Positions 10,923 through 46,269 of a stretch of 64,000 nt of DNA are shown here, piece after piece. The position numbers and the translations under genes were made by a program. The DNA lies in contig CAYIDD010000001.1 in NCBI GenBank assembly GCA_964362175.1, positions 569 through 64,568 on the forward strand. The letters run 5' to 3'. The notes beneath the pieces were generated by a model. The model had not been told where the DNA came from. It saw nothing but the letters and a program-made list of their open reading frames with translations, and did no database searches. Numbering within the stretch: the first letter of the stretch is position 1; each line of letters begins with the position of its first letter. Source of the DNA: an uncultured Candidatus Saccharibacteria bacterium. GTDB lineage: Bacteria > Patescibacteriota > Minisyncoccia > Phycocordibacterales > UBA2100.

Positions 10923-10923
10923 T

Positions 10924-15723: not shown

Positions 15724-15727
15724 GAGG

Positions 15728-15798
15728 TGCGGGTACGGAGAATCGAACTCCGATCTAATGCTTGGGAAGCATTCGTTCTGCCACTAAACTATACCCGC
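15728..15798 (-). tRNA. tRNA-Gly (CCC)
   Basis: acceptor GCGGGTA/TACCCGC, anticodon loop TTCCCAA, T-loop TTCGATT. Confidence 0.8.
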
Positions 15799-15848
15799 TT
15801 TGCTGGTTGCACAACAAAATCTAACAGAATTTCCTACCTCAAGCGAGT

Positions 15849-15940
15849 GCGACAGTGACTTGAAGAGTCTCCCGGAGCCGAAGAGGCGAGGATTAAGGAT
15901 CTTTCAGCAGAAAAATCCGGGCTCTGCGAGTCACTGTCGC
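15849..15940 (-). ncRNA. conserved three-stem structured element, copy 1 (unknown function; terminator/insulator or small RNA)
   Basis: 12-bp outer stem gcgacagtgact/agtcactgtcgc encloses a gcc-GAAGA-ggc hairpin and a ggatcttt-CAGCAG-aaaaatcc hairpin. Sits between the ftsB-like stop and tRNA-Gly. Strand assigned from flanking gene orientation only. Confidence 0.45.
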
Positions 15941-15951
15941 CGAGCCCCCCT

Positions 15952-16323
15952 TTACCACCACAAAAACGCACCCCGTATCTTATCAAAGACGGTAGAAGTA
16001 GCCTGCGTGGGCGTCGCCACCGGCTGATCTACGATGACGATGAGTTTCTCGCCTCTCGCTGCAAGTGCGTATTGCTCACGTAGTACCGCCTCAACACCTC
16101 TATCGGTCTGCAGATCGGCGATGTCCTCGTTCAGCTGATCCCGTCGATCTGTGTAGTCTTTCAACTGCGTTTCCGCCTCGATACGAAGTGCCATTGACTC
16201 CCCCTCTTTCCGGTATGCGTTCCACATTCCGAAGGCAAGCACCGAGACCAGCGCAAAGAGCCCAAGCATGAGGAGTCTCCTCCCGAAAACCCGCACTGGG
16301 TCATTCCGTTGCCTGATCGCCAT
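15952..16323 (-). CDS. septum formation initiator (FtsB/DivIC-like)
   Basis: N-terminal TM helix followed by a coiled coil (LRIEAETQLKDYTDRRDQLNEDIADLQ). Start probably at MMAIRQ. Confidence 0.55.
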   Translation of the reverse strand: MAIRQRNDPVRVFGRRLLMLGLFALVSVLAFGMWNAYRKEGESMALRIEAETQLKDYTDRRDQLNEDIADLQTDRGVEAVLREQYALAARGEKLIVIVDQPVATPTQATSTVFDKIRGAFLWW

Positions 16324-16349
16324 CATAGGATATAATCCTACCATTCGTT

Positions 16350-16487
16350 ATGAGTTTCCTTTTTCACAAACGGACCAAGAAGGTCATCAATACCGTTTGG
16401 AGCGTCATCGCCGTGCTCATCATCCTCGGCATGGTCGTGTTCTTTGCGCCAGGACTACCCACGTGGCTCGCAGGCCTCTTCGGCTAA
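16350..16487 (+). CDS. small membrane protein (45 aa)
   Basis: MSFLFHKRTKKVINTVWSVIAVLIILGMVVFFAPGLPTWLAGLFG. TATAAT at 16331. Below the 60-aa cutoff of the ORF track. Confidence 0.35.
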   Translation: MSFLFHKRTKKVINTVWSVIAVLIILGMVVFFAPGLPTWLAGLFG

Positions 16488-16562
16488 CTTTTCCCTCACG
16501 ACCTTCAAAACACCCCGGTACCACAGCGCTTCGCGCTGGCTACGGGGCAGGCCTCGTGCACC

Positions 16563-20134: not shown

Positions 20135-20174
20135 CGTCCGATGCTATCACACTATGCACACACCCGCCGTGAGG

Positions 20175-20525
20175 CGGGCTGTGTGCACTGCTACCTAAGC
20201 CGGATTCTGTCGAGGGCAACCATGTATCTGGGATGAATGTTGCCATTCACCTCAAGCGGCTCTCCTTGGGTGAGATATCCAATTGGTGTATCCCACACAG
20301 GCACGGCTTTGCACAGAGGTAAGAATTTTGCCGTTGCACCCACACCTCTCGATGTGATTATTCCCACCGGGAATCCTTCCCCTTTCGGAGTCGGCGTCAC
20401 TGTTCGCATCTCTCGCCTTGCGGCGGACGGGCGTTACCCGCTACCCTTCTCCGTCTTGCGACGGCTGTGTCCGGACTTTCCTCTATATGCCTTGCGGCAC
20501 ACAGCAGCTGCCTAACGCAGGCTGA
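20175..20525 (-). ncRNA. rnpB: RNase P RNA (bacterial type A-like, reduced P2/P3 region)
   Basis: reverse complement carries GGAAAGUCCGGAC (P4 5' strand), GGUAACGCC (P10/11 region) and ACAGAAUCCGGCUUAG (P4 3' strand). P1 GCUGUGUGC/GCACACAGC. Terminal hairpin cccgcc-gtga-ggcggg at 20163-20178. Ends approximate. Confidence 0.7.
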
Positions 20526-20583
20526 CAAGGTAGCATATTTTCGCTCTTTTCTCAACCAACACCCCAAGAAACTCGTCGAAGGT

Positions 20584-20668
20584 AGGCGCTGGCGGAGACT
20601 CCGCAGGCCGAAGAGGCCGAGGGTTGAGGAATTTTTCAGCAGAAAAATTCCGGTCTCCGCCAGCGCCT
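20584..20668 (-). ncRNA. conserved three-stem structured element, copy 2
   Basis: 16-bp perfect outer stem aggcgctggcggagac/gtctccgccagcgcct, ggcc-GAAGA-ggcc hairpin, ggaattttt-CAGCAG-aaaaattcc hairpin. Sits between the RNR stop and the rnpB promoter. Confidence 0.45.
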
Positions 20669-20687
20669 GCCGAGTAAGAGTTTCACC

Positions 20688-23048
20688 TCAAATAATCTCG
20701 CATGTCCCTCCCGCACACGCCAATTCCTTTGCCTGATCCGTCTCGTCGGTCCGCTCGTAGATGATCAACTTGGAGTAATCGACTGCGGGGAATTTTGCCG
20801 CGAGCTGCTCGTAGGTTTTCTTATCGATGGCCTCGTACGGCGCGAGTCGGTACACGTGATTCTCACGCGGAAGGAACGAGAGGCCGCCGATGATATCCCA
20901 GTTGTCCGAGATCCATGCAACGACTGCCACCCACTCCTCATCGCCGACGGAGATCGTTGCCGACGGATTATGTTCGGTGTAATTCAATTTAACTTTCTTC
21001 CAGTACTCAAGCTGTTCGATCGCGGAAAGATCGTTCTTGAATACAGAACCATTCGGTGCTTTGACCGGAAATTCGAGTACGAAGGTGCTCGCATCGTGCG
21101 CCTGCTGTCCCACCTCGGGATGTGCCTGCACGCCCTGATCGCGCATCATCTTGAAGAGCGAGTCGGTTGCGCTGATACGCACACGACGGATGTAGTACTG
21201 AGAATGACGCGGGTGAATACCTGAAGAGCAATTGAATGTCTGCGAGACCGTGCCCGACGGTTTTACGCACGTGATCGAGCTCGATGCGTTGATGCCGAAG
21301 CGCTTGGCGTACGTCTGGTTTGCTTTTTTGGTCGCTTCGCGCATCTTGCGCATCACTTTTTCATCGCGCACCGCGGGACAATCCCATTGACCCGTGATCG
21401 AGACACCGAGCAGGCGCTCTGCCTGACAATTTTCCTGCCACTCTTTCGAAATGTAGTTGAAGTTGGTCAGTGTTGATTGATACGTGCCCAAAAGCGTTGC
21501 GAGCTTCGCCTTGCGGAGTAACGACACCGGCGTGTCGTCGGCGCGCGCGATGACTTCCGAAAGATTGCAGAACTGTTTTGACTGGAGGATGATCTCGCCG
21601 CATGGATTGGTGCCCACCTGACCGATGAAATTACCTTTCTTGCCGCGTTTCTTTTGAAGGAGTGCGATGCGGCGCTCGGGCATCGTCTTTTCGAGCGACC
21701 CGCGGTTGAATATGCCGCGTTCACCGGTGCCGCTCTTCATGAGTGCCACCCATTCATCCATCAATTCAGCGTTCGATGGTTTCACTTCGTACACGGCGGA
21801 GTTGTTGGCTACCGATCGGTACGGATCCGTGAGGAAGAATTGACCCTTCTTGGCATCACGGATCTCGACATCGTCGAGGTCCGAGAGGCTGATCATCGCG
21901 GTGCGGCGCACGCCGCCGGCTACGACGCACTCGCCTATTTTGCAGATGATGTCGTGAGCGTCGATGTTGCGGAGGCGTCTTCCCTGTCGTCTCAGAATGC
22001 GGTCGCGTGCAAATGCGAGGAGCGAACGCAGCGGTTCCGGACCGGATGCTTTGCCGCCCATCGTCTTGAGTCGGGCACCTGCCGGACGGATCATCGAAAA
22101 ATCAAAATCGACATCTTTACCGGAGTACCACGCTTTGAGACCGAGCGTCAGAGAATCGCACCATCCTTCTTTTGTATCAGCAACAACGTGCGTGCCCAAT
22201 TTTTCTCCCGTCTGTTTTTCTATCTGCGGAAGCTGCTGAACGTTCTGGCTTTCTACCGCGTAGCCCACCCCGCACCCCTGCATGGAGAGATACATTATCT
22301 CTGCAAAATCTTCAAGCTTTACGGGAGCAGTGAACGAACAGTTGTAAAAACACGTATTGCATTTTCTCGCAGGCGCTCCGGCAAACTGCATCGCGCGCAT
22401 ACTTGGCATCACTTCTTGCTTAAGGATCGCTTCGCGAATTTCTGCGTACTCTCTTTTGGTGAGCTTATCGCCGAGATTCTCTTTCATGAATCCAACGTAG
22501 CGCTCGACGGTCTCTATCCATGTCTCGCGGCGCTGCTCACTCTCGATCCAGCGCGCATACGTGCGTAAATAGATAAATTCGCCGAGTGCATTGTTCTTGA
22601 AATACTGCCTGCTCTCCTCGGTGAGCTTTCGCACGTGCTCAGGCACCTCGCCCTGCTCCTTGCGCAGCTTCGAACGCTCGGCACGGTACAGAATATATGC
22701 TTTGGCGGTGCCCACGTAGTCGGAAAGGATGAGTTGGCGCTCGACTTCATCCTGACAACCCTCAACGGTAGGGAGAAAATTCTTGTAGGTCTTTGCGATA
22801 CGCATCATTTCACCTGCAACCTTGTGCGCAACGACGGCCGCCTCGTCGCGCGAGCCCTCATTGGAAGCCGCCATGGCCTTGTGAATGACATTTACGATTT
22901 TTGGGAAATCAAATGGGACGATCCTCCCGTCTCTTTTTTGGATCTGCGACAAATATTTTTTATAGACGCGGATCGCAGAACCATCGTCCGAGGGTACTGT
23001 GGCGACCTTTCCTCTTGCCAAGCGTGCAGTGGCTCTTGTCATGCGCAT
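20688..23048 (-). CDS. nrdJ: adenosylcobalamin-dependent (class II) ribonucleotide reductase with N-terminal ATP-cone
   Basis: 786 aa. ATP-cone (KRDGRIVPFDFPKI). RNR 10-stranded barrel motifs (NPCGEI, CNLSEV). No Fe/tyrosyl R2 gene nearby. Confidence 0.85.
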   Translation of the reverse strand: MRMTRATARLARGKVATVPSDDGSAIRVYKKYLSQIQKRDGRIVPFDFPKIVNVIHKAMAASNEGSRDEAAVVAHKVAGEMMRIAKTYKNFLPTVEGCQDEVERQLILSDYVGTAKAYILYRAERSKLRKEQGEVPEHVRKLTEESRQYFKNNALGEFIYLRTYARWIESEQRRETWIETVERYVGFMKENLGDKLTKREYAEIREAILKQEVMPSMRAMQFAGAPARKCNTCFYNCSFTAPVKLEDFAEIMYLSMQGCGVGYAVESQNVQQLPQIEKQTGEKLGTHVVADTKEGWCDSLTLGLKAWYSGKDVDFDFSMIRPAGARLKTMGGKASGPEPLRSLLAFARDRILRRQGRRLRNIDAHDIICKIGECVVAGGVRRTAMISLSDLDDVEIRDAKKGQFFLTDPYRSVANNSAVYEVKPSNAELMDEWVALMKSGTGERGIFNRGSLEKTMPERRIALLQKKRGKKGNFIGQVGTNPCGEIILQSKQFCNLSEVIARADDTPVSLLRKAKLATLLGTYQSTLTNFNYISKEWQENCQAERLLGVSITGQWDCPAVRDEKVMRKMREATKKANQTYAKRFGINASSSITCVKPSGTVSQTFNCSSGIHPRHSQYYIRRVRISATDSLFKMMRDQGVQAHPEVGQQAHDASTFVLEFPVKAPNGSVFKNDLSAIEQLEYWKKVKLNYTEHNPSATISVGDEEWVAVVAWISDNWDIIGGLSFLPRENHVYRLAPYEAIDKKTYEQLAAKFPAVDYSKLIIYERTDETDQAKELACAGGTCEII

Positions 23049-23675: not shown

Positions 23676-24143
23676 TCACTCGGCGATATAAATCTCCGGA
23701 CTCACTTGATCGTATAAGCCTCCGGAACCCGCCTGCGTGCCGAGAGTAAGAACTACCGCCATAACGATGAGTGTCACGAGCCAGTACAGCGAGTTAATGA
23801 GATAGAGCCGGAATGGCTTGTGCTCCCACAACACCGTACCCAGCATAACGGGCGCCACGAATCCCACCCAGCACCAGAATCCGAGTTCGATCGCACCGAT
23901 CCAATCATACACACCCCACGCGATGCCGAAATAATTCATTACGTATGCAGCCATCATTCCTGCAAAAAGTGAAATGAGCGCATGAAGATGTCTGTTCTTC
24001 TTTCCACGCTCCGCCATTTCCGGTGTGATGTTGTTCAATCGCACCCACGCATTGCCGAAAACTTTTGGGTGATACCAAACCCATCCGATGAGCACGGAAG
24101 CAACGCCCGCCGCGAACACCGGCCAGAATGTAACATCGATCAT
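23676..24143 (-). CDS. DUF1761-family membrane protein
   Basis: MIDVTFWPVFAAGVASVLIGWVWYHPKVFGNAW N-terminus typical of DUF1761. The ORF track extends upstream to 24227, probably spuriously. Confidence 0.5.
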   Translation of the reverse strand: MIDVTFWPVFAAGVASVLIGWVWYHPKVFGNAWVRLNNITPEMAERGKKNRHLHALISLFAGMMAAYVMNYFGIAWGVYDWIGAIELGFWCWVGFVAPVMLGTVLWEHKPFRLYLINSLYWLVTLIVMAVVLTLGTQAGSGGLYDQVSPEIYIAE

Positions 24144-24212
24144 AGGCGCATGATAGCTCACGGACGCGCTCCGTCCAGACGAAGATGTGCATAGATGCGA
24201 AGGACAAGAGGA

Positions 24213-24236
24213 CACGCTTTCTCCCACACAAAGCGG
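24213..24236. repeat. 24-bp direct repeat, left copy (att-like), cacgctttctcccacacaaagcgg
   Basis: identical to 25952-25975, which abuts the 3' end of tRNA-Ser. Confidence 0.8.
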
Positions 24237-24339
24237 GCCGTCCGCAGTTCGAACTTTTAGAGATTAGCTACTTGCAACAAGTTATCCACTAACACAAAAC
24301 CGCCTACGGTGAATAGGCGGCTTGTGTCCTAAGTGACGA

Positions 24340-24504
24340 TTAACGACCACCCAAAATCCCACTGGGCTGTCTCGGTTCTTCGGGCTTTCCTCCCTTGTCC
24401 AACTCTCTTAATCGCTTCTCAACCTCCTCCAAACGCTGTGATATACGGGTGATTACCGCATTCACATGCGCATACAAACTCTCAACCGTGTCTGGTACTT
24501 TCAT
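24340..24504 (-). CDS. mini-ORF (54 aa, coiled-coil-like) inside AT-rich islet segment
   Basis: MKVPDTVESLYAHVNAVITRISQRLEEVEKRLRELDKGGKPEEPRQPSGILGGR. Divergent from a 48-aa ORF 26 nt away. Not in the ORF track (<60 aa). Confidence 0.25.
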   Translation of the reverse strand: MKVPDTVESLYAHVNAVITRISQRLEEVEKRLRELDKGGKPEEPRQPSGILGGR

Positions 24505-24530
24505 AATTACTCTTTCTAATTAACTCGACA

Positions 24531-24677
24531 ATGAATAAATCTACAAAGAAGTCTAAAATATCCTCTATTAGAGCCGATGTTAAGGCCTTACGAAAGGATT
24601 TTAAACTTCTCGCATCCCTCCTTGAACGTCTGTGTCAACTAACGGGGGCTAGTAGGGCCGAACTCGCGAAGATGTGA
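24531..24677 (+). CDS. mini-ORF (48 aa) ending in HTH-like LTGASRAELAKM (possible truncated Xre/excisionase-like regulator)
   Basis: MNKSTKKSKISSIRADVKALRKDFKLLASLLERLCQLTGASRAELAKM. Divergent partner of the 54-aa ORF. Confidence 0.25.
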   Translation: MNKSTKKSKISSIRADVKALRKDFKLLASLLERLCQLTGASRAELAKM

Positions 24678-24822
24678 ACTTACTTAAAAGGGGGTTACTA
24701 ATAATTAGTGTCCACAGTATACTACAATAACTTGTTGCAGGTATATAGGCTCTGAACTTTTGACATCAAGCACCGTAAGGGTTCTTTAGTAAGTTCCAGG
24801 GCGACTTGCCGAGGTGTCCGCA

Positions 24823-25767
24823 TCACGAGGCCTTATTTGCACCTTCAAGCTCTTCTTGTTTACTTCGGGCGTAACGATTTAACTCTTGACCTTGATCACT
24901 CAAGTAACCGGCCGTTGAAAAAGCACGCCATATTTTGCCTCGAGCTTCATTCATTTCTTTTAACGTTTGAGCGGTATCGAAAGTGTGTCTGAAGATACCG
25001 TACTCCTTATCCGTAGCGGTTTTTTGCAACTCTCTTCCTTGATAGGACAGACTGCCACCAGGGGTTACGCACAACTGCCATATCTTTGCCTTGATTTTTT
25101 CTAAACCATCAACGGTATTCTCTTCCTCTATCTGTTTTGAGAATATGCCAGCCATATGTTCGTTAGCTGCATGGTACACAATGTCCACAACCGATGAAAC
25201 AATCCGATAGTCGCTATGAATTACTTGATGTATCAGTTCCTTATATTGGTTTCTTAGACTGTCGATCTCTTCGACTGCTTTGATATTGCTAAAACCTTTC
25301 GCAAAAACCGATTTTATTTTCGATTCGAGCACGTCTGCAAGTTGTTTCTCGTTAAATTCGCCTTTGTCGTGCTTACCATACTTTTCATCATTCAAATCTT
25401 TCCGAAGCTTTAAAAGTTCTTCTATATTTTGCGCTGACTGTATTCGTTCGTTCCATGGTCGACTGTCTTTCTCTTCTCGTGGCGGCCATCTACGCTCGGG
25501 CTCACGTAACTGACCAGGAATATATTGTGCTCGCTTTTCGGGATCCTTGAGAGTGGCGTAGGCTTCCGAAACCAATTTCATTTTCTCGGCGTCTCCCCCA
25601 CTTTCCGAGTCGGGATGAAGGTTTTTTGAGATCGTTCTGAAAGCGACAGCAATTTCGGTCTGCGACGCATCGGACGCAACACCGAGTCTCGCATAAAAAT
25701 CAGCAGTAGCTTCGATATGCGGGGTCAAACGATTTTGCTTCGAACTTGGCTCGACCCGCTCTTTCAT
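24823..25767 (-). CDS. J-domain (DnaJ N-terminal domain) protein, no Zn-finger/CTD; low-GC, likely horizontally acquired
   Basis: DFYARLGV..EIAVAFRTISKNLHPDSE..KLVSEAYATLKDPEKRAQY with HPD tripeptide. The rest is a Lys/Glu-rich helical region with no recognisable domain. Confidence 0.6.
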   Translation of the reverse strand: MKERVEPSSKQNRLTPHIEATADFYARLGVASDASQTEIAVAFRTISKNLHPDSESGGDAEKMKLVSEAYATLKDPEKRAQYIPGQLREPERRWPPREEKDSRPWNERIQSAQNIEELLKLRKDLNDEKYGKHDKGEFNEKQLADVLESKIKSVFAKGFSNIKAVEEIDSLRNQYKELIHQVIHSDYRIVSSVVDIVYHAANEHMAGIFSKQIEEENTVDGLEKIKAKIWQLCVTPGGSLSYQGRELQKTATDKEYGIFRHTFDTAQTLKEMNEARGKIWRAFSTAGYLSDQGQELNRYARSKQEELEGANKAS

Positions 25768-25864
25768 GGCTAAACTATAACACTATCCGCAAAAGCTTCT
25801 TGAAGCCATCGACAACGCATCGAAACCATAGGCGTCCGCATACCTCCGATACTTCTTTCTTCGG

Positions 25865-25896
25865 GCGGAGGCGGAGAGATTCGAACTCTCGGTGCC
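25865..25896 (-). pseudogene. tRNA-Ser 3'-end fragment (32 nt, T-arm + acceptor 3' strand), duplicated att remnant
   Basis: gcggaggcggagagattcgaactctcggtgcc is identical to 25972-26003 of the intact tRNA-Ser. No 5' half is present. Confidence 0.7.
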
Positions 25897-25951
25897 CTCC
25901 CGATTTCTTCAAGCTCGCTTGATTAGAAATCGCAGTTCTTTAGGGTTGCGG

Positions 25952-25975
25952 CACGCTTTCTCCCACACAAAGCGG
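25952..25975. repeat. 24-bp direct repeat, right copy, overlapping tRNA-Ser 3' end
   Basis: cacgctttctcccacacaaagcgg; the last 3 nt are the tRNA discriminator region. Confidence 0.8.
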
Positions 25976-26057
25976 AGGCGGAGAGATTCGAACTCTCGGT
26001 GCCTTGCGGCACACACGCTTTCCAAGCGTGCGCACTAGACCACTATGCGACGCCTCC
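25973..26057 (-). tRNA. tRNA-Ser (GGA)
   Basis: acceptor GGAGGCG/CGCCTCC, 3-bp D-stem, anticodon stem CACGC/GCGTG with loop TTGGAAA, long variable arm TGCCGCAAGGCA, T-loop TTCGAAT. Confidence 0.8.
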
Positions 26058-28217: not shown

Positions 28218-31200
28218 CTACTGTATCTCCTTACGCAAAAGCTGGAGCAGCTGCAGATTTTGCGCTGCCGACCCCCTGTAGTTTGTGATGCCATAACTCG
28301 CTGCCAGTTGGGCACGACTGGCATAATCACTTGGCTGCCCTGCGGCCTTGAGGAAGTTGATGATCGAGTCGCCTTTGTAATTCTGCGCCGTGGCGTACAG
28401 ATTTTCTGCGGTAGGTTGAGAGTACGGAAGCGGTACGGGAAGACCTTTGGTCTGCAACGCATCCAGCATCTGAATGTTACATGTCGCAGTCCCGACACTG
28501 CACGTGAGCCCCATTTCCTGAGCGAGTTTCCTGCGCGAACTGAGGTCGGAAGACAGGCCATTTTCCTCAAGACAATTGACGATGGAGGAATTTGAGCACG
28601 ACACCTGAAATGGCGACTTCGTCGAAGGCTCAACGACTTGCCCTCCAACTCCCGATTCCCCCGCGTCAGAACTCGGGATTGTATTGGGTTCAACCGATAC
28701 TGGCTCACCGCTCGCAAGCCTGAAGCCGGAGTCTGGAAGATCAGATTTAGATTCAGCGACGACTTCCCTGAAAATTTCTTCCCAATCGGTCTCGGCCGCC
28801 GGACCCGGCATGGGCAGACGCGCGTCAAGTTCGGCATCAGTGGGTGCCGACGCAACAATGGGGGCGTTTCCTGCTGACGCGCCAAAGCCGAAAAATTCCT
28901 TGGTTCCCTCCCAGATCTCCAGAGCATATTCCCGCCAACCCTTGTTTGTCTCCGGGGCGATGGCCGTAGTCGGTGAATCACGAACTACAGAATCTGCCAC
29001 CTCCTGCGCAGCCTCACTTGAGACAGGCTCCGTGGACTCAGGTCCACCGATGGCCGCAAAACCTGGCACGACTTCGCCCCACACGGTGTGCGGAATTGGG
29101 GCTCCCGTCTCCAGATGGGCGACAAGCTCAGGGACCGGCAGAGGATACGAAGCCGAGACATACGACGTAAAACCTTCGAGACCTCCCAAACTTTGGGAAG
29201 AAAGATTCGGGGGAACAGGCGCGGAAGCGGTGAGGGTCGCCTCGGTCCCACGTAATGTGTTGATCGACTGCGCGAGAACAGAGATCTCCGTTCCCAGCCG
29301 CGCGTAGTTACTCTGCAGACCAGGAAGCGAATTCACGCTTGGGTCTGTCGTACCGAGAACCTTGGCGGATGCTAAAAGCGTGTTGCCCGCCTGTATCGCA
29401 TCGTTCGCTGCCGATAAACTTCGAACGGAGGCAAGATGATCGAGCTTTGCAACATAGCCGTTAATGCTATTCGCGAGATCGGTTTCTCCCATTTGCCGAG
29501 CGAGTCCTGCCAGGCTTTTGGCCGCATTCCTACCCTCAACCATCGTCGCCACGCCTTTCTCGTCTGGTATTTGTAGTTTGCGCAATTCCGCAAGACCTGC
29601 CTGCGCTTTTGCGAGGAGAGTTCTGGCCTGTGCTGAGTTATTTTTCAATTTCTGAAGTTCTGCTATTTGTTTCTTCAGAGCATCTCTTTTAATCTCGATT
29701 TCCTGCTTCGCTTTTTCCGCATCAGCCAACTGGCCTCTCGTCTCTTCGAGTTCCTGCTGTCGATTCGCGTCTTCAACTTCCCCGGACTCTGCGGTTTTGG
29801 TGTCAGCTGCCGTACCCTCGTCGGATCCCCCAAGTTTCGCAAGCTGTTCTTGCCTAAGCCGCTCTTCCTGCGCCACCACCTCGGCTTTTGCCGCTGCCTG
29901 ATCGAACGGCTCGGCTGGAGGCGGCATCGGAATTCGCGCTTCAAGTTCGGTATCGGAGGGTGTCGGTTGCTCGGTCTGCACCTGCTGGGTCTCGGGGTTG
30001 GCGTCGGTCAAAGAACTGGTATTTAGATTCGACGCGTATTGGCGGAGAGCCTCATTGTCATCGCTCTTGTTCGTCCATACTGATGGTGCTTCTTCCAGAG
30101 GCGCGCTTGGTTGTTCCCCGCCTGTTCCGAGAGATTTACCGATATCTTGGAGCCACTTGCGCACGGTGCCCAATACCTGCCCCGTCTTGTCCGCAAAGGA
30201 TTCAGCGAATGTCTTTTCGGAAGTAGCCGGTGGTTGTTCGGGGATCGGCGTAACGTCGGGACCAGTTTCAGCGGGGCTCTCTGTGGTCGGGAGTTGCGAG
30301 GGACCCTGCGCGACCGGAGATGATATTGTTCCCGGTTGGTCTGGCGCGACCACCGATGATCCATTTGCCAACCGGAAACTTTCCGTTTGCGCTTTTTGTA
30401 TGGCATCCCCGAGGGAATCTTGCGCAGATTCGGGTGGAACATACACCGCACGACCATTGGAATCGTAGAGTGTCAAACCACCGTCCCGATCGATCTGAAA
30501 TCGCTCGGAGTCTCCGATCTTCCCCGATGTACTCTTCAAGTCCGATACGGATTGGTCGAGTGGTAGTGGCTGGTCGGACGGAAGCTGCCGGAAACCGATG
30601 ATGTCACTTGTGGGAACGCTCGGTTGAGCGGCAAGTTCGATCGGCGGAGTGTCGGGTGGGGATGTCTCGCCGTATCCAAAGAGAGATTTGATGGAATTAA
30701 TTCCCGACTCCACTCCCGATGTGACAGCCGACTTTGCGATGTCCCACGCCACCGCATACGGAGACGAAGACGGCGGAGGGGGGGCCGGAGGATTTGCCGC
30801 GCGTTCGGCGGCGGAAGCTTCATTCTGCATATCGAGCCGTACCTGCGTTTCTGCGATAGAACGCGCGATTTCCTGCCTGAACGCTGGTTCGGAGGCATAT
30901 TCCGGATTTTTCTCAAGGATTTTTTCATACACGCGCCGGTCGAATTCCGTCAACTTCTCGGTAAACGGCGGCGCTTCTCCAGACACATACACTTGAGAAA
31001 CGGGAGCTGGCTCCGCAGAGGTCACGGAAACGGGTTCGGCAGGCGGAGAGGCAGGTGCAGATGTGAGAACAAATCCCCCCGATCCGGCGGAGGAATCAGT
31101 AGGTTCTGCTGATCGGCTACCATTCGACGCGAGAGTGAACGAAGAATCCGCTCTTAACGACTGTGCTTGCGCCAAACCTTCACTCCACGCATTCCCGCGG

Positions 31201-32438
31201 GACACAAGTTCCACCTGCATTTGGCTCCGGTTCACCTCCTGGTAAGTGCCTAAGTTTTCGGCAATGGCTGGGGTAATATCGATCCCCTTTCCGCAGGATG
31301 GACAGTGGTCTCCAACTACTCCGTAGGTAGACAAACCGGTGTTGGGATTGGTAATCATTACGACATCGCCAAACCTCAATCCTGATGAGTTACCAGCCGC
31401 TATCACAGGTAGGTCTCGATCTATATAGTTACTGCGACTTCCAACGCGCGGCCCCTCTATTCCAGGTGAACAGCCAGGGTCCACAGCTACGCTGCAACCT
31501 CCAGGATAATATAGGGTCGCCCTCAGATTAGGTATGTTCCCCGCCTCGGCGTCGCCACCAAACTCTTTTGCCACTCTGCCCCACGTATTCGCGACAACTT
31601 GTTTTGTGGCCTCCCATGCCTTTGCGACTGAACAAAACCAGCCATCGCACGATTTCGTCTCCGCAGCATTTTGGTCGAATCCGGTGGAATCGGATGACAC
31701 ATTCTCTGTTTGCGGTTTTCCGAACGTATCGAGATTGCCGTAATAGTTCGGGTTTAGATTTCCCTCAGCATCGAACGGCTGGGCGGATGCGTTCCCCGGT
31801 GAAAACAATTGCCCCGTATCGTTACCCACCGTTTGTGTTGACGGCAAAGTATCGGTAAGAGATCCTCTCCCGTCATCGCCTGGCAAAATTCCCCACCGCT
31901 GCAACGTCGCCTCCCAAATACTCTTTCCCGGTCCGATCTCCGACGCGCTGTCAGCGCCCGTAAGAGCATCGAAAGCCCCCTTCAAGCGCTCGCTCCAGGT
32001 CAGCAATCGCTCAGGTTCCGGTGTTTCCGGAGACACACCAGCTTCGCTTACCAGCGGCTGTGACCCGTCTGAGAGTGTGGGTTTCGTCGCTTCGCTCACC
32101 TGTCTTCCCTCGCAGTCCGTAGTGGCCCTGCACTCACCGATCGCTTTACACTCCCCCTCTATCTCCTTTCTGGGACATGATGTCGTGTCCTTGCATACAC
32201 AGTCCTTACCGCCTATCGCAATAACATTTCCGTCTTTGTCTTTCTTTATCTCGTCGCATTGGAGACTGTAATCAACAGGTTTCCCATTTTTTTCGGACGT
32301 GCAGCTTAAGTTTGCAGTGACGTTGGCATCCTGCGCATGTAAAGCGAGGGGTAAAAATAGAAGGACGAGAGAAGTCGTCGCAATTGCGAACATAGACGAA
32401 ACAACCGTGCGAGTGCGGCACGTCATGTGTCCTTTCAT
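28218..32438 (-). CDS. giant secreted Cys-rich multidomain protein: signal peptide, Cys-rich N-module, RlpA-like DPBB domain, Pro-rich linkers, long coiled coil, C-terminal paired ~45-aa repeats
   Basis: 1406 aa. GLRFGDVVMITNPNTGLSTYGVVGDHCPSCGKGIDITPAIAENLG resembles an RlpA-type double-psi beta-barrel. ~250-aa heptad-rich region. The C-terminal repeats (SIVNCLEENGLSSDLSSRRKLAQEMGL / SIINFLKAAGQPSDYASRAQLAASYGI) are a motif I do not recognise. Confidence 0.8.
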   Translation of the reverse strand: MKGHMTCRTRTVVSSMFAIATTSLVLLFLPLALHAQDANVTANLSCTSEKNGKPVDYSLQCDEIKKDKDGNVIAIGGKDCVCKDTTSCPRKEIEGECKAIGECRATTDCEGRQVSEATKPTLSDGSQPLVSEAGVSPETPEPERLLTWSERLKGAFDALTGADSASEIGPGKSIWEATLQRWGILPGDDGRGSLTDTLPSTQTVGNDTGQLFSPGNASAQPFDAEGNLNPNYYGNLDTFGKPQTENVSSDSTGFDQNAAETKSCDGWFCSVAKAWEATKQVVANTWGRVAKEFGGDAEAGNIPNLRATLYYPGGCSVAVDPGCSPGIEGPRVGSRSNYIDRDLPVIAAGNSSGLRFGDVVMITNPNTGLSTYGVVGDHCPSCGKGIDITPAIAENLGTYQEVNRSQMQVELVSRGNAWSEGLAQAQSLRADSSFTLASNGSRSAEPTDSSAGSGGFVLTSAPASPPAEPVSVTSAEPAPVSQVYVSGEAPPFTEKLTEFDRRVYEKILEKNPEYASEPAFRQEIARSIAETQVRLDMQNEASAAERAANPPAPPPPSSSPYAVAWDIAKSAVTSGVESGINSIKSLFGYGETSPPDTPPIELAAQPSVPTSDIIGFRQLPSDQPLPLDQSVSDLKSTSGKIGDSERFQIDRDGGLTLYDSNGRAVYVPPESAQDSLGDAIQKAQTESFRLANGSSVVAPDQPGTISSPVAQGPSQLPTTESPAETGPDVTPIPEQPPATSEKTFAESFADKTGQVLGTVRKWLQDIGKSLGTGGEQPSAPLEEAPSVWTNKSDDNEALRQYASNLNTSSLTDANPETQQVQTEQPTPSDTELEARIPMPPPAEPFDQAAAKAEVVAQEERLRQEQLAKLGGSDEGTAADTKTAESGEVEDANRQQELEETRGQLADAEKAKQEIEIKRDALKKQIAELQKLKNNSAQARTLLAKAQAGLAELRKLQIPDEKGVATMVEGRNAAKSLAGLARQMGETDLANSINGYVAKLDHLASVRSLSAANDAIQAGNTLLASAKVLGTTDPSVNSLPGLQSNYARLGTEISVLAQSINTLRGTEATLTASAPVPPNLSSQSLGGLEGFTSYVSASYPLPVPELVAHLETGAPIPHTVWGEVVPGFAAIGGPESTEPVSSEAAQEVADSVVRDSPTTAIAPETNKGWREYALEIWEGTKEFFGFGASAGNAPIVASAPTDAELDARLPMPGPAAETDWEEIFREVVAESKSDLPDSGFRLASGEPVSVEPNTIPSSDAGESGVGGQVVEPSTKSPFQVSCSNSSIVNCLEENGLSSDLSSRRKLAQEMGLTCSVGTATCNIQMLDALQTKGLPVPLPYSQPTAENLYATAQNYKGDSIINFLKAAGQPSDYASRAQLAASYGITNYRGSAAQNLQLLQLLRKEIQ

Positions 32439-41618: not shown

Positions 41619-42893
41619 TTGGGCTTAATGCTGCGACAGATCAAAAACATCCCCTATTTCACGGTGGCGCGATATTTCAGGTTTTTCGCCCGCATACGGC
41701 TCGCGGCGTGGAAGCCGCGTATCGTCGTCATCACGGGATCCAACGGCAAAACCTCGGCTCTGAATCTCATCGAAGTCCAGCTGGGAGACGCGGCACGATA
41801 TTCTCACAATGCCAACAGCAGCTTCGGCATCCCGTTCGACATTCTGGGTCTCACACGCACCTCTTACTCGCTCCTAGAGTGGGTACTGCTCATCATTCGC
41901 GCACCCATCAATGCGTGGAAAAAACCGTATGCGGAAAAGATATACGTGGTCGAAGCAGATTGCGATAGGCCCGGCGAAGGACGATTCCTGAGCTCGCTCC
42001 TCATGCCGGAGGTGGTGGTGTGGTTGAGTAGCGCACGAACGCACAGCCAAAATTTCGAGAAAGTGGTACGCCGGAGAGGATTCCCAACGATCGAGAAAGC
42101 GATCGCTCACGAATTCGGGTACTTCGCCGCACACGCATCAAAACACGTTCTCATAAACGCCGACAACGACCTCATCACCGCAGAGATGAAACGTGTACGC
42201 GCCGAGGTCCACCTCATCACAGAACGAGAACTGGAGCTGTATACCATCACGCCCGACGGGAGCGAATTCAGGATACGGGAAAAACTCTATCACACACCTT
42301 GTCTGCTCCCGAAAGAGACTTTTTATGCCATCGCCGCGTCGGTACGGCTCGCCGAGTACTTTAGAGTGACGCCGACTACCGATCTCTCCGGACTTGTGAT
42401 GCCGCCAAGCCGAAGTTCGATATTTCGCGGCATCAAAGACACCGTCATCATCGATAGCACCTACAACGCAAACGCAGACTCCGTCGCCGCGGTGCTTCAC
42501 ATGATAGAGCGATTGCCTTCGGAAAAAAAGTGGCTCATTCTCGGCGACCTGATCGAACAGGGTGCGCAGGAAAAAGAAGAACATGAGAAAGTAGCTCGAT
42601 TGGTTCTGGAAGCCGATGTTCAAAAAGTGATCCTCGTCGGGCCCCGCCTTGCCGCGTACACCCTGCCGATCCTTAAACCCGCGCTCAATACCGGGATTGC
42701 TTCCTACGCCGGTCCCAAAGAGGCGCTTGATGACATCCAGTCCTCATTACAAGGCGGCGAGATGCTCATCTTCAAAGGCGCGCGGTTTTTGGAGGGAGTC
42801 GTCGAACATCTGCTGCAAAATAAAGATGATGCGGACAAACTATGCCGCCGCGGAAGGGTGTGGCAAAAACGCCGGGCACAGTGGGGACTATGA
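41619..42893 (+). CDS. Mur ligase family protein (MurF-like UDP-MurNAc-peptide ligase)
   Basis: VITGSNGKTS P-loop of Mur ligases. Central and C-terminal Mur ligase domains by length. Confidence 0.7.
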   Translation: MGLMLRQIKNIPYFTVARYFRFFARIRLAAWKPRIVVITGSNGKTSALNLIEVQLGDAARYSHNANSSFGIPFDILGLTRTSYSLLEWVLLIIRAPINAWKKPYAEKIYVVEADCDRPGEGRFLSSLLMPEVVVWLSSARTHSQNFEKVVRRRGFPTIEKAIAHEFGYFAAHASKHVLINADNDLITAEMKRVRAEVHLITERELELYTITPDGSEFRIREKLYHTPCLLPKETFYAIAASVRLAEYFRVTPTTDLSGLVMPPSRSSIFRGIKDTVIIDSTYNANADSVAAVLHMIERLPSEKKWLILGDLIEQGAQEKEEHEKVARLVLEADVQKVILVGPRLAAYTLPILKPALNTGIASYAGPKEALDDIQSSLQGGEMLIFKGARFLEGVVEHLLQNKDDADKLCRRGRVWQKRRAQWGL

Positions 42894-43579
42894 GTAAGAT
42901 ATTTATTCTTCACGGATGGACATATCAGACCGAGACGTGGCGATCTCTGCGTGAGATGCTTAAAGAGCGCGGATTGGAGGCCGAATTCCTCCTTATTCCC
43001 GGACTCACCGACGGCACAAATCCGATCTGGACCCTCGACGACTATGTCGAGTGGCTGAGGAGCAGAACTGCGGAATACGGGAAAGTTATTCTCATCGGAC
43101 ATTCCAATGGCGGTCGCATCTCGCTCGCGTTCGCCGAAAAGTATCCGGAAAAAGTCGAACGGCTCATCCTTGAAGACAGCGCCGGCATCCCCGCGATGGG
43201 ATTACGCGCCCTCAAGCGTGATGTATTCAAGGTAATCGCGAAAATCGGAGGTGCGGTCACCAAGTCTGAAGTACTGAGAAAAGTCCTGCACAAAGTCGCC
43301 CGAGAGAGCGACTACCAAAGGGCAACCCCCGAGATGCGCCGCACGATGGCGAATTTGGGATCCGTCGATCTCGGTCCGATCTTTCAGCGGATCAAGGCCC
43401 CCACGCTCATCATATGGGGGGAAAAGGACACCACGACACCGCTTGCAAGTGGAAAAATAATGCACGAAAAGATACGCGGCTCACGGATGGTCGTGATCGA
43501 AGGCGCGCGCCACTCGCCGCACATAACACACACAAAAGAGGTTGCCGACCTCATCACGGAAGAACTTACGCGTCCATGA
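42890..43579 (+). CDS. alpha/beta hydrolase
   Basis: GHSNGG nucleophile elbow, C-terminal His. Start overlaps the upstream stop (ATGA). Confidence 0.7.
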   Translation: MSKIFILHGWTYQTETWRSLREMLKERGLEAEFLLIPGLTDGTNPIWTLDDYVEWLRSRTAEYGKVILIGHSNGGRISLAFAEKYPEKVERLILEDSAGIPAMGLRALKRDVFKVIAKIGGAVTKSEVLRKVLHKVARESDYQRATPEMRRTMANLGSVDLGPIFQRIKAPTLIIWGEKDTTTPLASGKIMHEKIRGSRMVVIEGARHSPHITHTKEVADLITEELTRP

Positions 43580-45798
43580 ATATTTTCAACTCCCTCGGCT
43601 CAAATTACACGCTCTCTTCCGCAATACGGATACTGTTCTCAACGGGTGATACTAGCGCGCAGCAAAAATTGATCGAGTATCTCGAAGCGCGTTACGGCCT
43701 GCCCGGCCAAGGGGGACGAGCGATTCTTACATATAAAGGCCGCGAAGCACTTTTTCTCGCGATTGCGGCACTTCCTCAGGGCGCTATCGCCATCAACGGC
43801 TTTACCTGCCTCGCCGTATACGAGGCGATAACCGAAAATGGACGCGCGGTGCACTACATTGACGTCCCGGAAAACAATCTGAATTTCACGCCCGCATCTT
43901 TCCAGGCCGCGCTCGTGTCGAACCCCGCGATCAAAGCCGTTATCGTTCAGAACACACTCGGTATTCCCTGTGACATACAAACGATCAGATCACTCTGTGA
44001 ACGGCACGGAGTCGCCCTCATCGAAGATCTCGCACACTCTATCGGTACCCGATACTCCACCGGCGAAGAGGCGGGTACTGTTGGAGACTTCGTTGTCCTT
44101 TCGTTCAGTCAGGATAAAGTCGTTGATGCGGTTTCGGGAGGGGCACTCATTATCCGTAACAAAAAGTACGTGGACGCTGTCATTTCTGCGGAGCATGTAC
44201 CAAGCTTGGGTCAGCAACTAAAAGACCGTTTCTATCCGGTACTGACGTGGAAGATCAGGGTCGCGTATGCGCTCGGTATCGGAAAGGCGCTGCATGCGCT
44301 CTTCCGCTCCCTCCATCTCCTTTCCACACCGTTCGGGAAGATGGCAGCGAACGATGCGCATGCATTACCGGGGTGGTATTGCGACATCATTCTGCAGCAA
44401 TACACAGTTCTCGAAAAAACAGCGGCACACCGACGGGAGATCGCGCACATATACGCACAGTACGTGGACAAACGACTGCAGATCCCTGCTGATCTCCAAC
44501 GCTCGACCAATGTGCGATTCCCCCTCCTCGCAAACAATCGCGCAAGCCTGATCAGATTTCTGAAAAAAGACGGTGTTCACGTGAGCGACATTTGGTACGA
44601 CGCCCCCATAGCGCCTAAAAAATATCTGCGCCGTACGGATTACAAGGGGCAGTGTCCCCACGCGGAGCACATTTCAGAAATGATGGTGAACCTGCCGACT
44701 CACATTAATGTCTCTCCGATACACGCACGGACCATTGCCGAATCGGTCAACAAGTGGCTCGTTGAAGGAACGAGCGAATATAGCGTTACGGCCGTCGCTG
44801 ATGAAAATGTGTGGGAAAAATACCTCCGCGCGCAAAAGCCGCACAGTTTTCTGCATGCGTGGAAATGGGGACAACACTACGAGCTTTCCGGATCCAAAAT
44901 ATTCCGCCTTGGCGTTTACCGAGGCGAGACCCTGGTGGCTATTGCTCTCCTCATAAAGATAGAGGCACGCCGCGGCTCCTTCCTTCTGTGCCCGCATGGT
45001 CCGATCGTCGCCGACATCGCACACGAAGAGCCCGTACTACGGGTACTCACCGAGCACTGCGGGCAAATTGCGAAAGATGAGATGTGTGCCTTCATTCGCT
45101 TCTGCCCGCTCGCAAAACCGACCCCAGAAAACGTTATGATATATCATAATTTAGGGTTTCGAAGTGCGCCCATCCATATGCATCCTGAGTTGGCGTGGAT
45201 GTTGGATATCACAAAGCCCGAAGACGAGTTGCTAAAAGCGATGCGAAAAACGACGCGCTACCTCGTGAAAAGAATGGAGAAAGAAGGGGTGGAGGTCGTG
45301 CAGAGCGTTAACCCCGCAGACATTGAAAAGTTTTGGCCAGTCTACGAGGCAACGGTGGAGCGCCAACAATTCATGCCGTTCAGCAAATCCTACCTACAAA
45401 AAGAATTCGAGCTATTCGCCAAAGATAACCAAGCTGCATTCTTTTTCGGAACATATCGAGGCGAGATAATTGCCGCTGCCATTATCATTTTCTACAACGG
45501 GCAGGCGTTTTACCACCACAGTGGTTCTATACAGAAATTCGATGACATTAACGCTTCGTACCTTTTGCAGTGGCGCGTCATACAAGAAGCGAAACGTCGT
45601 GGCTGTACGCTCTACAACTTCTGGGGCATCTCCCCCACCGACCGTCCGCGCCACCCATGGGCCGGCCTTTCACTATTCAAAAAAGGCTTCGGCGGCTTCG
45701 CGGAAAAATACCTCCATGCGCAAGATAAACCCCTTACTGCAAAATATGCGCTCAACTACGTTGTCGAGACCGCCCGACGCTTCCGTCGCGGCTTATAA
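43576..45798 (+). CDS. fusion protein: DegT/DnrJ/EryC1-type PLP-dependent sugar aminotransferase (N) + FemAB-family aminoacyl/acyl transferase (C)
   Basis: the N-terminal half carries HYIDV..N..P..KAVIVQNTLG..D...I..L..RHGVALIEDLAHS ... SFSQDK (PLP lysine). The C-terminal half carries FemAB-like FYHHSGS..QW..I..A...G...YNFWG and KGFGG motifs. Start overlaps the upstream stop. Confidence 0.65.
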   Translation: MNIFNSLGSNYTLSSAIRILFSTGDTSAQQKLIEYLEARYGLPGQGGRAILTYKGREALFLAIAALPQGAIAINGFTCLAVYEAITENGRAVHYIDVPENNLNFTPASFQAALVSNPAIKAVIVQNTLGIPCDIQTIRSLCERHGVALIEDLAHSIGTRYSTGEEAGTVGDFVVLSFSQDKVVDAVSGGALIIRNKKYVDAVISAEHVPSLGQQLKDRFYPVLTWKIRVAYALGIGKALHALFRSLHLLSTPFGKMAANDAHALPGWYCDIILQQYTVLEKTAAHRREIAHIYAQYVDKRLQIPADLQRSTNVRFPLLANNRASLIRFLKKDGVHVSDIWYDAPIAPKKYLRRTDYKGQCPHAEHISEMMVNLPTHINVSPIHARTIAESVNKWLVEGTSEYSVTAVADENVWEKYLRAQKPHSFLHAWKWGQHYELSGSKIFRLGVYRGETLVAIALLIKIEARRGSFLLCPHGPIVADIAHEEPVLRVLTEHCGQIAKDEMCAFIRFCPLAKPTPENVMIYHNLGFRSAPIHMHPELAWMLDITKPEDELLKAMRKTTRYLVKRMEKEGVEVVQSVNPADIEKFWPVYEATVERQQFMPFSKSYLQKEFELFAKDNQAAFFFGTYRGEIIAAAIIIFYNGQAFYHHSGSIQKFDDINASYLLQWRVIQEAKRRGCTLYNFWGISPTDRPRHPWAGLSLFKKGFGGFAEKYLHAQDKPLTAKYALNYVVETARRFRRGL

Positions 45799-45849
45799 AA
45801 ACGAATCCCGGCCTGTCGCCGGGATTCACATGAATGACCGCGTTGCAGT

Positions 45850-46206
45850 TCAACGCAATAACGTGGGTAACCGGTGAGCAAGCTCGCGAACGTCGTCCAT
45901 CGCATCAACGCTCGATGGAATCCAACGCTCCGTGTCGTCGTCGGAGCCGATTGAGAAGTCGATTATGACATTTCCCAAAGCTTCCCGCCAGATTTTCAAT
46001 ACCGCGATTGTCGGCGGCTTGGTTCCGTCTTTGTCGTCGGACAGGCCGACCACAATCGTTTCCTGCTCAACTTCCGCTCCGAGACTGCGGTGTTGAAAAG
46101 GCCCTCTGTAGACGGTCAGGGCTGGATTGCAGGAAGCCAGGTCACGCACAATTTTCTCGGCCGTATCGAGAAAGTCAGCGCCATTCGGTTTTTGCCTCAC
46201 GGGCAT
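45850..46206 (-). CDS. hypothetical protein (~118 aa)
   Basis: ORF downstream of nth on the same strand. No recognisable motif. Confidence 0.35.
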   Translation of the reverse strand: MPVRQKPNGADFLDTAEKIVRDLASCNPALTVYRGPFQHRSLGAEVEQETIVVGLSDDKDGTKPPTIAVLKIWREALGNVIIDFSIGSDDDTERWIPSSVDAMDDVRELAHRLPTLLR

Positions 46207-46269
46207 TCTCCCTTGTAGAGAACACCGCGGTATAGCCGCCGCGGGATCGGTCGGCGACACTATACTCCG

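Follow-up and report, generated by a model that had tools for sequence, protein, structure and literature searches.

What would a pyridoxal phosphate (PLP)-dependent enzyme of the DegT fold do on the same polypeptide as a FemX-type aminoacyl transferase, and why is the gene for both found downstream of a MurF-type ligase? The question is raised by a locus on contig CAYIDD010000001.1 (assembly GCA_964362175.1) of an uncultured Candidatus Saccharibacteria bacterium, of which a stretch of 64,000 nucleotides, hereafter the window, was analysed (positions 569 to 64,568, forward strand). The two fused enzymes securely belong together and are nearly always co-transcribed with the MurF of the phylum, placing them at cytoplasmic precursor synthesis; the reading preferred here, to which a probability of roughly 0.55 is given, is that a tRNA-dependent aminoacyl transfer is coupled to PLP chemistry on a primary amine and tied to the MurF step. 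The operon consists of the following elements:

41628..42893, plus strand: MurF-type Mur ligase, 421 aa (Mur_ligase_C, TIGR01143, motifs, AlphaFold2 model, Foldseek)
42890..42893, plus strand: ATGA start/stop overlap between ligase and hydrolase genes (read from the sequence)
42890..43579, plus strand: alpha/beta-fold serine hydrolase, 229 aa (Abhydrolase_1, Abhydrolase_6, conserved triad)
43576..43579, plus strand: ATGA start/stop overlap between hydrolase and fusion genes (read from the sequence)
43576..45798, plus strand: fusion gene, 740 codons and a stop codon (open reading frame, Pfam, homologues, AlphaFold2 model)
43576..44763, plus strand: DegT-fold PLP domain of the fusion, residues 1-396 (PF01041, alignments, Foldseek)
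44773..45795, plus strand: FemX-type double-GNAT domain of the fusion, residues 400-740 (FemAB, Foldseek, HMMER alignments)

The uninterrupted open reading frame (ORF) at the locus is 43414-45798(+), its first 54 codons running over the end of the upstream gene; the realistic start is the ATG at 43576, inside CCATGA, whose TGA is the stop codon of the hydrolase gene, and the product is 740 aa long. The identical protein, with the same start, is found in the gene calls of two independent Hainich groundwater assemblies (L001, L002), and the NCBI name for the identical protein from a Patescibacteria metagenome-assembled genome (MAG) is 'FemA/FemB family protein'. Pfam searches clearly indicate both halves, DegT_DnrJ_EryC1 at 5e-36 (125.1 bits, gathering cutoff 19.8) and FemAB (PF02388) at 1.8e-35 (123 bits, gathering cutoff 24), with Acetyltransf_6 at 2.5e-13. 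A preliminary description of the window, made from the sequence alone, had proposed one polypeptide with a DegT-type and a FemAB-type half; Pfam and Foldseek agree with it at the level of family and fold, and the FemAB signature and the Foldseek match to FemX show that the C-terminal half is not an unrelated GNAT. The SFSQDK lysine noticed in the N-terminal half is present at residues 176-181, and the C-terminal motifs FYHHSGS, YNFWG and KGFGG are present at residues 645, 680 and 703, within a half that comprises about 340 aa and not the ~380 aa given at first. The AlphaFold2 model of the fusion, built with 59 homologues, has a mean predicted local distance difference test score (pLDDT) of 93.3 and zero disordered stretches, with values of about 82 in the linker region. 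About 57 clusters, mostly of Candidatus Kaiserbacteria, contain the full-length fusion at 56-74% identity, and more distant fusions were found at 31-40%; the N-terminal half alone is 40-54% identical to many standalone proteins of ~410 aa from Levybacteria and other Patescibacteria.

The ligase, the hydrolase and the fusion form a translationally coupled operon, bounded on both sides by opposite-strand genes. The placement of the fusion directly behind a MurF-like ligase and an alpha/beta hydrolase, and the overlapping start and stop codons, both remarked on in the preliminary description, are upheld by Pfam, NCBIfam and the coordinates, with the same 4-nt ATGA overlap at either junction.

A profile scan for the DegT-like protein across one genome per species of GTDB confirmed 191 loci, of which 80 (L007-L086) were examined; the ORFs of the loci were searched with the four window proteins, and 83 non-redundant loci were compared. 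The order MurF-type ligase, hydrolase, DegT-like enzyme, FemX-like enzyme, all on one strand, is kept at 75 of the 83, most of the eight partial loci being truncated at contig ends. Four separate genes are present at 65 of these 75 loci, so that the separate genes are indeed adjacent in other lineages, as the preliminary description had suggested checking; at nine loci the DegT-like and FemX-like genes are fused, and at one (P0120/L006) the hydrolase is fused to the DegT-like enzyme. The module occurs in Microgenomates (Levy-, Davies-, Gottesman-, Roizman- and Woesebacteria), in Parcubacteria (Kaiser-, Nomura-, Colwell-, Kerfeld- and Doudnabacteria) and in Saccharibacteria.

A search with the profile of the DegT half against 1.84 billion representative proteins returned 1,237 clusters at E<=1e-30; among the best 150 of these, eight have a length of 705-743 aa and the others of ~400 aa. 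In a neighbour-joining tree of the DegT-like domain the DegT-FemX fusions fall into at least four separate clades among standalone genes, hence the fusion arose repeatedly, at least four times. This repeated fusion is the strongest evidence that the DegT-like and FemX-like enzymes act together; no further fusions were found among the homologues of the hydrolase or the ligase in the top 120 of either search. The ORF of the window is a lineage-specific fusion, belonging to a Kaiserbacteria-like clade, of two adjacent and usually separate genes of the operon. At one fusion locus (L003:8175-9197 and 9245-11719) a second, standalone FemAB paralogue stands behind the fusion, followed by the genes of leucyl-tRNA synthetase (LeuRS), NusB and RNase III; this downstream synteny is also that of Southlakia, where a LolA-like gene takes the place of those for the hydrolase, the PLP enzyme and FemX. 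The adjacency of LeuRS in L003 and Southlakia was considered as a clue to the tRNA donor and rejected, since LeuRS is absent from the recurrent neighbours of the module, and the adjacency is taken as lineage synteny.

An occurrence of the module outside Patescibacteria was also considered, as 21 of the 80 loci examined (e.g., L034, L047, L054 and L065) come from third-party assemblies titled Gamma- or Alphaproteobacteria or Pseudomonadales. In the labelled loci in which MurC or MurD is present (L034, L038, L056 and L085), these proteins score ~120-235 bits to the E. coli proteins and are as distant from them as those of loci from named members of the Candidate Phyla Radiation (CPR); because of this equal distance the Proteobacteria labels are regarded as unreliable.

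The operon adjoins the division and cell wall (dcw) cluster, and in some genomes lies inside it, at the position of murF. In L060 the genes follow in the order MurE/GlmU, MurC-MurB, MurD, MurI, MurF-type ligase, hydrolase, DegT-like and FemX-like enzymes, MraY, FtsW, MurG, a gene of no assigned family and FtsA; in L006 the order is MurC, MurB, MurA, ligase, hydrolase-DegT, FemX, DAGK, MraY and MurI, so at both loci the ligase lies upstream of mraY. The peptidoglycan link that the preliminary description had guessed at is thereby strong, given the 75 loci in order and the place of the module in L060 between murC-murB, murD and murI on one side and mraY, ftsW, murG and ftsA on the other. Two other fusions were seen in this context: MurC-MurB fusions of ~730-775 aa in several Patescibacteria (L060:1691-3952; also L065, L056, L038, L043 and L085) and, at L060:162-1691, one ORF combining the C-terminal part of MurE with a GlmU-like N-terminal uridyltransferase domain.

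The ligase deserves attention, since its assignment ties the module to peptidoglycan. It matches Mur_ligase_C at 1.8e-11 and the murF model TIGR01143 at 7e-35, with 120.8 bits missing the curated cutoff of 288.6; in L060, the curated NCBIfam cutoffs are passed by MurC, MurD and MurE and missed by the ligase (129 vs 288.6). The MurF motifs TGSxGKT, DRPxEG, DSxYNAN, GDxxExG..EH and FKGAR are kept in 69 orthologues, the AlphaFold2 model has a pLDDT of 91.9, and its ten best Foldseek matches in the PDB are all MurF (template modelling (TM) score ~0.72 on the query). The UDP-binding N-terminal domain 1 is missing: the P-loop TGSNGKT is located at residues 36-42, compared with 106-112 in E. coli MurF, and is preceded by a single long helix (residues 2-28); the C-terminus carries a conserved basic, Arg/Trp-rich tail. 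An alternative start is TTG 41619. The orthologues in the 75 loci are labelled by NCBI as 'cyanophycin synthetase', 'Mur ligase family protein' or 'hypothetical', and the orthologue of Southlakia received no KofamKOALA assignment. The E. coli MurF query matched only the module's own ligases in the loci, and no second MurF was found there. The partner gene of murF in Firmicutes is ddl; the ligase shares with canonical MurF the motifs, the structure and the place in the dcw cluster, and differs in lacking domain 1, in scoring below the curated cutoff and in having a hydrolase, a PLP enzyme and FemX as partners instead of Ddl.

In the saccharibacterium Southlakia epibionticum, the orthologue SEML1_0599, a MurF of two domains according to ECOD, is essential in transposon sequencing and is followed by a non-essential LolA-like gene and then by LeuRS, NusB and RNase III (PMC10633639 supplement). 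The gene tables of the same supplement list neither a FemAB domain nor KEGG numbers for ddl, alr or murI. The ligase is therefore the MurF of the phylum, accompanied by an accessory unit of three downstream genes that has been lost at least once, in a host-attached lineage. The possibility that the ligase is a paralogue other than MurF, for instance a cyanophycin synthetase, was rejected on the grounds of motifs, structure, dcw position and essentiality in Southlakia. The case is also one of annotation, in that curated models and KEGG-type assignment overlook the MurF of Patescibacteria, and the fusion carries no label beyond that of a FemA/FemB glycyltransferase.

The N-terminal half of the fusion has the fold of DegT/DnrJ/EryC1/StrS enzymes, but its active site is atypical. 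A Foldseek search against the PDB found ArnB, WbpE, WecE, QdtB and WlaRG with TM scores of 0.70-0.80, and the profile alignment spans both domains of the fold-type I architecture (E 6e-31 to 7b0d). Three residues are of particular importance:

43807-43809, plus strand: Cys78, at the position of the PLP-stacking aromatic residue (HMMER alignments; invariant in the family)
44026-44028, plus strand: Asp151, at the position of the Asp that pairs with the pyridine nitrogen (aligned with the Asp of ArnB EDAAH)
44116-44118, plus strand: Lys181, the Schiff-base lysine (HMMER alignment with ArnB K188)

K181 and D151 are invariant or nearly so across the family, so that the SFxxxK lysine and the aspartate of the sugar aminotransferases (ArnB, WbpE, WecE, QdtB, PglE) have their counterparts here. 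Unlike in those enzymes, the T-F/Y/W motif supplying the PLP-stacking aromatic residue of PF01041 proteins is not kept: the invariant Cys78 aligns with W of ArnB, F of 7b0d, Y of 7n63 and F of QdtB, and in alignments to the same four proteins K54-G55-R56 stands in place of the SGT phosphate loop. A further difference is an insertion of ~55 aa (residues ~205-260), modelled as two helices and bearing the invariant Y220, T224, R228 and H240; another is the FNSLGSN motif at the extreme N-terminus, with invariant F4, S6, G8, S9 and N10. The remaining invariant columns of the alignment of 27 standalone and fused members are K54, T77, C78, D96, Q125-G129, E150, H154, S176, F177, D180, K181, D184, R286, R314, D338, W340, Y341, D342, N372, T375 and H376. 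Every sugar-aminotransferase equivalog (PseC, LegC, WecE, ArnB, DesI) is missed, the best score being that of PseC with 87.6 bits against 423.5. The annotated recurrent neighbours in the 83 loci are GyrA, GyrB, Mur ligases, DnaB, Maf, pyrophosphatase, MraY and FolD, and among the ten commonest annotated neighbour families there is no dehydratase or oxidoreductase that would form a keto sugar, so that the module also differs from sugar-aminotransferase loci in lacking a conserved partner of this kind. The alignment of the 27 members shows a sharply defined subfamily; the half is a PLP enzyme of the DegT fold, for which the name 'sugar aminotransferase' would exceed the evidence. The thiol of Cys78, if it lies on the face of the cofactor opposite Lys181, could provide what a two-base racemase or epimerase requires.

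The C-terminal half resembles most clearly the FemX of Weissella viridescens, hereafter FemX(Wv): Foldseek gave TM scores of 0.79-0.81 for FemX(Wv) (0.80-0.81 for 1xe4/1ne9, the 0.81 being on the target) and of 0.70 for S. aureus FemX. The alignment to S. aureus FemX proceeds in two blocks and skips its residues 231-299, which form the coiled-coil arm; the half is therefore of the compact FemX(Wv) type. Two sites decide how far the likeness extends:

45379-45381, plus strand: Phe602, at the position of Arg211 of FemX(Wv) (HMMER alignments to 6snr and 1ne9)
45676-45681, plus strand: F701-K702, equivalent to F304-K305 of FemX(Wv) and aligned with FKK of S. aureus FemX (HMMER alignments)

FemX(Wv) is a cytoplasmic enzyme whose substrate is the product of MurF and whose Lys305 is catalytic (PMC2655667; PMC12945691). 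Arg211 together with Lys36 binds both phosphates and both D-Ala residues of UDP-MurNAc-pentapeptide, and D-Ala is transferred at a 110-fold lower efficiency (PMC2655667); D-aminoacyl chemistry is therefore feasible in this fold. In the family of the window protein, FKxGFGG is conserved at >=90% in 76 orthologues, and so is Phe602, in a column occupied by Arg in FemX(Wv) as well as in S. aureus FemX. The anchor for UDP-MurNAc-pentapeptide or lipid II is thus missing at Arg211, the Lys36 column being not reliably alignable. The common points with FemX(Wv) (PDB 1NE9, 4II9), a UDP-MurNAc-pentapeptide:L-alanine transferase, are the compact double GNAT without the coiled-coil arm, the FK motif and action on the MurF product, which matches the position of the gene downstream of murF; the differences are an identity of only ~20%, the invariant Phe for Arg211, the fusion or adjacency to a PLP enzyme and the adjacency to a hydrolase. 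The score against the NCBIfam equivalog of the FemX(Wv) type is 49.6, compared with a cutoff of 500, and another weak NCBIfam match is to the exopolysaccharide-associated PEP-CTERM FemAB family.

The hydrolase matches Abhydrolase_1 (1e-18) and Abhydrolase_6 (4e-15), and its catalytic apparatus is intact, with the HGW oxyanion motif, the GHSNGGR nucleophile elbow and both other triad residues, Asp and His; the triad and the oxyanion motif are kept in 78 orthologues. Its closest solved relatives are proline iminopeptidase, small esterases, BioH and valacyclovir hydrolase, all at weak E values of 1e-8 to 1e-13; the last of these is an alpha-amino-acid ester hydrolase. An enzyme recognising an aminoacyl ester or amide with a free amine would fit the other two proteins.

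Taken in sequence, the steps of the preferred scheme would be as follows. The FemX half would take an aminoacyl group from aminoacyl-tRNA and form a peptide bond with a primary amine. The PLP half would work on the same free-amine centre, either by making the acceptor amine through transamination or by acting on the alpha-carbon of the attached aminoacyl residue, for example in an L-to-D epimerisation with Cys78 as the second base opposite Lys181. The serine hydrolase would act on an aminoacyl ester or amide in proofreading or release, and the product would enter peptidoglycan via the MurF step, before MraY. PLP enzymes acting on carrier-attached aminoacyl groups with a free amine exist: isopenicillin N epimerase on an N-terminal residue, and SepCysS, SelA and SepSecS on aminoacyl-tRNA. 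They share fold type I with the PLP half and belong to other subfamilies, and the comparison is by analogy only; chemistry of their kind would explain the fusion to a tRNA-dependent transferase. The combination of the two domains has its own parallel in DhpH (dehydrophos, Streptomyces luridus), which likewise unites in one polypeptide an N-terminal PLP-dependent domain, producing an amine, and a C-terminal FemX-like aminoacylating domain; DhpH differs in serving a secondary-metabolite phosphonate pathway and not a housekeeping cell-wall operon, and is likened here by architecture and not by the sequence of its PLP domain. DhpH-C, the FemX-like domain of this bifunctional enzyme, aminoacylates a small amine from Leu-tRNA (PMC12945691). 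The two-step logic of the preliminary description, an amine followed by its aminoacylation, stands in its general form, given at least four independent fusions and the precedent of DhpH; the amino sugar named there as the amine is not supported, as set out below.

As for the acceptor, the side-chain amine of residue 3 of the UDP-MurNAc-peptide, as in W. viridescens, is proposed tentatively; a fold like that of FemX(Wv) and the position of the gene between murF and mraY speak for this branch. The residue itself is uncertain, because the MurE proteins of Patescibacteria (L060, L065, L070, L071, L075, L086) have EDPR, EDSR or EDDR where the enzymes adding meso-diaminopimelate have DNPR, differing in the first two residues and keeping the Arg. 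A free amino acid, yielding a terminal dipeptide to be added by MurF, is a possible acceptor too, if a somewhat doubtful one, and an amino sugar is an improbable one.

Several observations weigh against the preferred scheme. The canonical grip on the acceptor is not conserved, since the Arg211 column holds Phe602. The place of the hydrolase in the scheme is putative, and we infer the role of the PLP half from substitutions in alignments of ~20% identity. The absence of the three genes from Southlakia means that a host-attached lineage can carry out the MurF reaction without them. Finally, in a Saccharibacteria MAG (L022, with the pair at 8001-10051), a full member of the PLP subfamily, 50% identical to the window protein and keeping all signature motifs including NGFTC and LSFSQDK, is followed by a distant FemAB/Acetyltransf_6 protein of 289 aa that keeps FKKGFGG, in a cluster (flanks 1778-17185) with neither the MurF-type ligase nor the hydrolase. 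Around the pair, the cluster encodes five GT4 glycosyltransferases, a GT2/PMT_2 protein, methyltransferases, a polysaccharide deacetylase, a UDP-sugar dehydrogenase, a phosphoenolpyruvate (PEP) mutase fused to a cytidylyltransferase and a thiamine pyrophosphate enzyme resembling phosphonopyruvate decarboxylase. On account of this glycan and phosphonate cluster, the PLP/FemAB pair is not intrinsically a peptidoglycan device; it can operate apart from peptidoglycan, with a glycan, or else a small amine like 2-aminoethylphosphonate, as its substrate, which echoes DhpH.

Among the explanations competing with the preferred scheme, the one that survives best, although doubtful as a whole, is that the three genes behind murF replace or supplement the D-Ala-D-Ala ligase. 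The FemX half would join a tRNA-borne aminoacyl group to a free amino acid, e.g., D-Ala, the hydrolase would edit or release, the PLP half would epimerise the N-terminal residue with its free amine or make an amino acid, and the MurF-type ligase would add the dipeptide to UDP-MurNAc-tripeptide. Such dipeptide synthesis is favoured by the strict linkage to murF, whose partner in Firmicutes is ddl, by the loss of the Arg211 anchor for phosphate and D-Ala, which suits a small acceptor, by the formation of peptides on small amines by DhpH-C and its relatives, and by the amino-acid ester hydrolase among the relatives of the hydrolase. Southlakia, with neither the three genes nor annotated ddl, alr, murI or FemAB, looks as expected of an epibiont that scavenges D-amino acids. 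In 1.35 Mb of Patescibacteria locus DNA, which includes loci spanning murG to ftsA, and 9 kb more of the contig, phmmer found no match to E. coli DdlB at E<10, whereas E. coli queries found 27 MurC, 27 MurD and 20 MurE ORFs in the 1.35 Mb, and a MurI-like family is present in ~7 loci. The E. coli Alr query had a single match in the same 1.35 Mb, a canonical enzyme at L066:11115-12272, two genes downstream of the FemX gene of the module. The absence of ddl and the adjacency of Alr are suggestive but weak, because each locus covers ~2% of a genome, and Ddl-like ligase genes of the van type, within vancomycin-resistance-like sets that include accessory van genes, were reported in 48 CPR genomes of a survey (PMC8651080). 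Moreover, the usual cargo of Fem transferases is Gly or an L-amino acid, whereas a D residue is required at position 4; three enzymes in place of one ATP-grasp enzyme are unparsimonious, and structurally the FemX half comes closest to a FemX specific for UDP-MurNAc-pentapeptide. The DegT-like enzyme as a plain replacement of alanine racemase was considered as well and is weakened by the canonical Alr in L066.

A more specific proposal, distinctly doubtful, is a tRNA-dependent and Ddl-independent end or branch of D-amino acids, in which a DegT-fold two-base epimerase (Lys181, Cys78) would invert the residue on the tRNA or after transfer. Under this Ddl-independent proposal FemX would form the bond from L-aminoacyl-tRNA, the esterase would edit or release, and MurF without domain 1 would install the product.

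Unlikely, and with the least support in the murF context, is the explanation of the preliminary description itself, according to which the DegT half, as a nucleotide-sugar aminotransferase, supplies an amino sugar for N-aminoacylation or N-acylation by the FemX half, resulting in a modified glycan or peptidoglycan sugar. It draws on the solved structures closest to the N-terminal half, all of them sugar or inosose aminotransferases, on the weak match of the FemX half to the exopolysaccharide-associated family and on L022, where the pair lies amid glycosyltransferases, a deacetylase and a UDP-sugar dehydrogenase. The substrate in L022 may be a sugar or a small amine; the PEP mutase and the phosphonopyruvate-decarboxylase-like enzyme there mean that the amine could be 2-aminoethylphosphonate. 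In the module proper, the missing keto-sugar partner, the failure of all sugar-aminotransferase equivalogs by far, Cys78 at the stacking position, KGR for SGT and the 55-aa insertion argue against an amino sugar; in addition, an extra amine would find scant room at the ring positions that MurNAc and GlcNAc have in peptidoglycan.

The remaining explanation, that a sequencing frameshift or a lost stop codon merged two neighbouring genes on this contig only, may be dismissed: although the two genes are separate in most relatives, abutting or overlapping by a few bases, so that one error could join them, the full-length architecture is shared by the ~57 clusters and the more distant proteins, the identical protein comes from two independent assemblies, fusion length recurs among the 150 best representatives at 50% identity, and the AlphaFold2 model is confident across the junction.

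Beyond the stop codon of the operon one more feature was noted:

45801..45829, no strand assigned: 12-bp G+C-rich hairpin, 3 nt past the operon stop, between convergent genes (consensus scan only)

In the consensus scan this hairpin came out as a terminator-like site of the minus-strand gene 45850-46260, and action in both directions is possible. Elsewhere in the window and on the contig several genes are of separate interest. A predicted surface protein of 1,218 aa (3286-6942, minus strand) contains eight SpaA_2 prealbumin-like repeats, DUF11 and a peptidoglycan-binding domain, and another of 1,931 aa, with SpaA_2 and SpaA_4 repeats, is encoded on the contig before the window start (L091:12457-18252); both giant genes adjoin the gene of an Amidase_3 protein (616-1317) and that of a CAP-domain protein. 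An ORF of ~1,400 aa (28218-32438, minus strand) has a faint DUF3597 match as its sole Pfam signal. The G+C content at 24001-26000 is 0.466, compared with ~0.54 elsewhere, and this region adjoins tRNA-Ser(GGA) (25972-26057) and a DnaJ-domain gene (24823-25767). On the minus strand, at 18434-23048, the MurJ flippase (18434-20134), the class A RNase P RNA (20180-20519) and a class II ribonucleotide reductase with an ATP-cone (20688-23048) stand in a row.

The two domain families and the ligase family are known, and the fusion is present in databases under the FemA/FemB name; full-text literature searches found no published description of the fusion, of the PLP subfamily or of the four-gene operon, and literature searches found no published chemical analysis of the peptidoglycan of Patescibacteria (CPR). 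There is a realistic chance that FemX-type tailoring of the cell wall with an obligatory PLP partner represents new chemistry. The phylum-wide operon at the MurF step joins three enzyme types that had no earlier joint report in cell-wall synthesis. Should the PLP half turn out to epimerise or to create the amine acylated by FemX, an amino acid, possibly a D-amino acid, would reach peptidoglycan by a new route, and the DegT fold would gain a new type of reaction. Patescibacteria are one of the largest bacterial radiations, and the operon offers a testable handle on the chemistry of their peptidoglycan.

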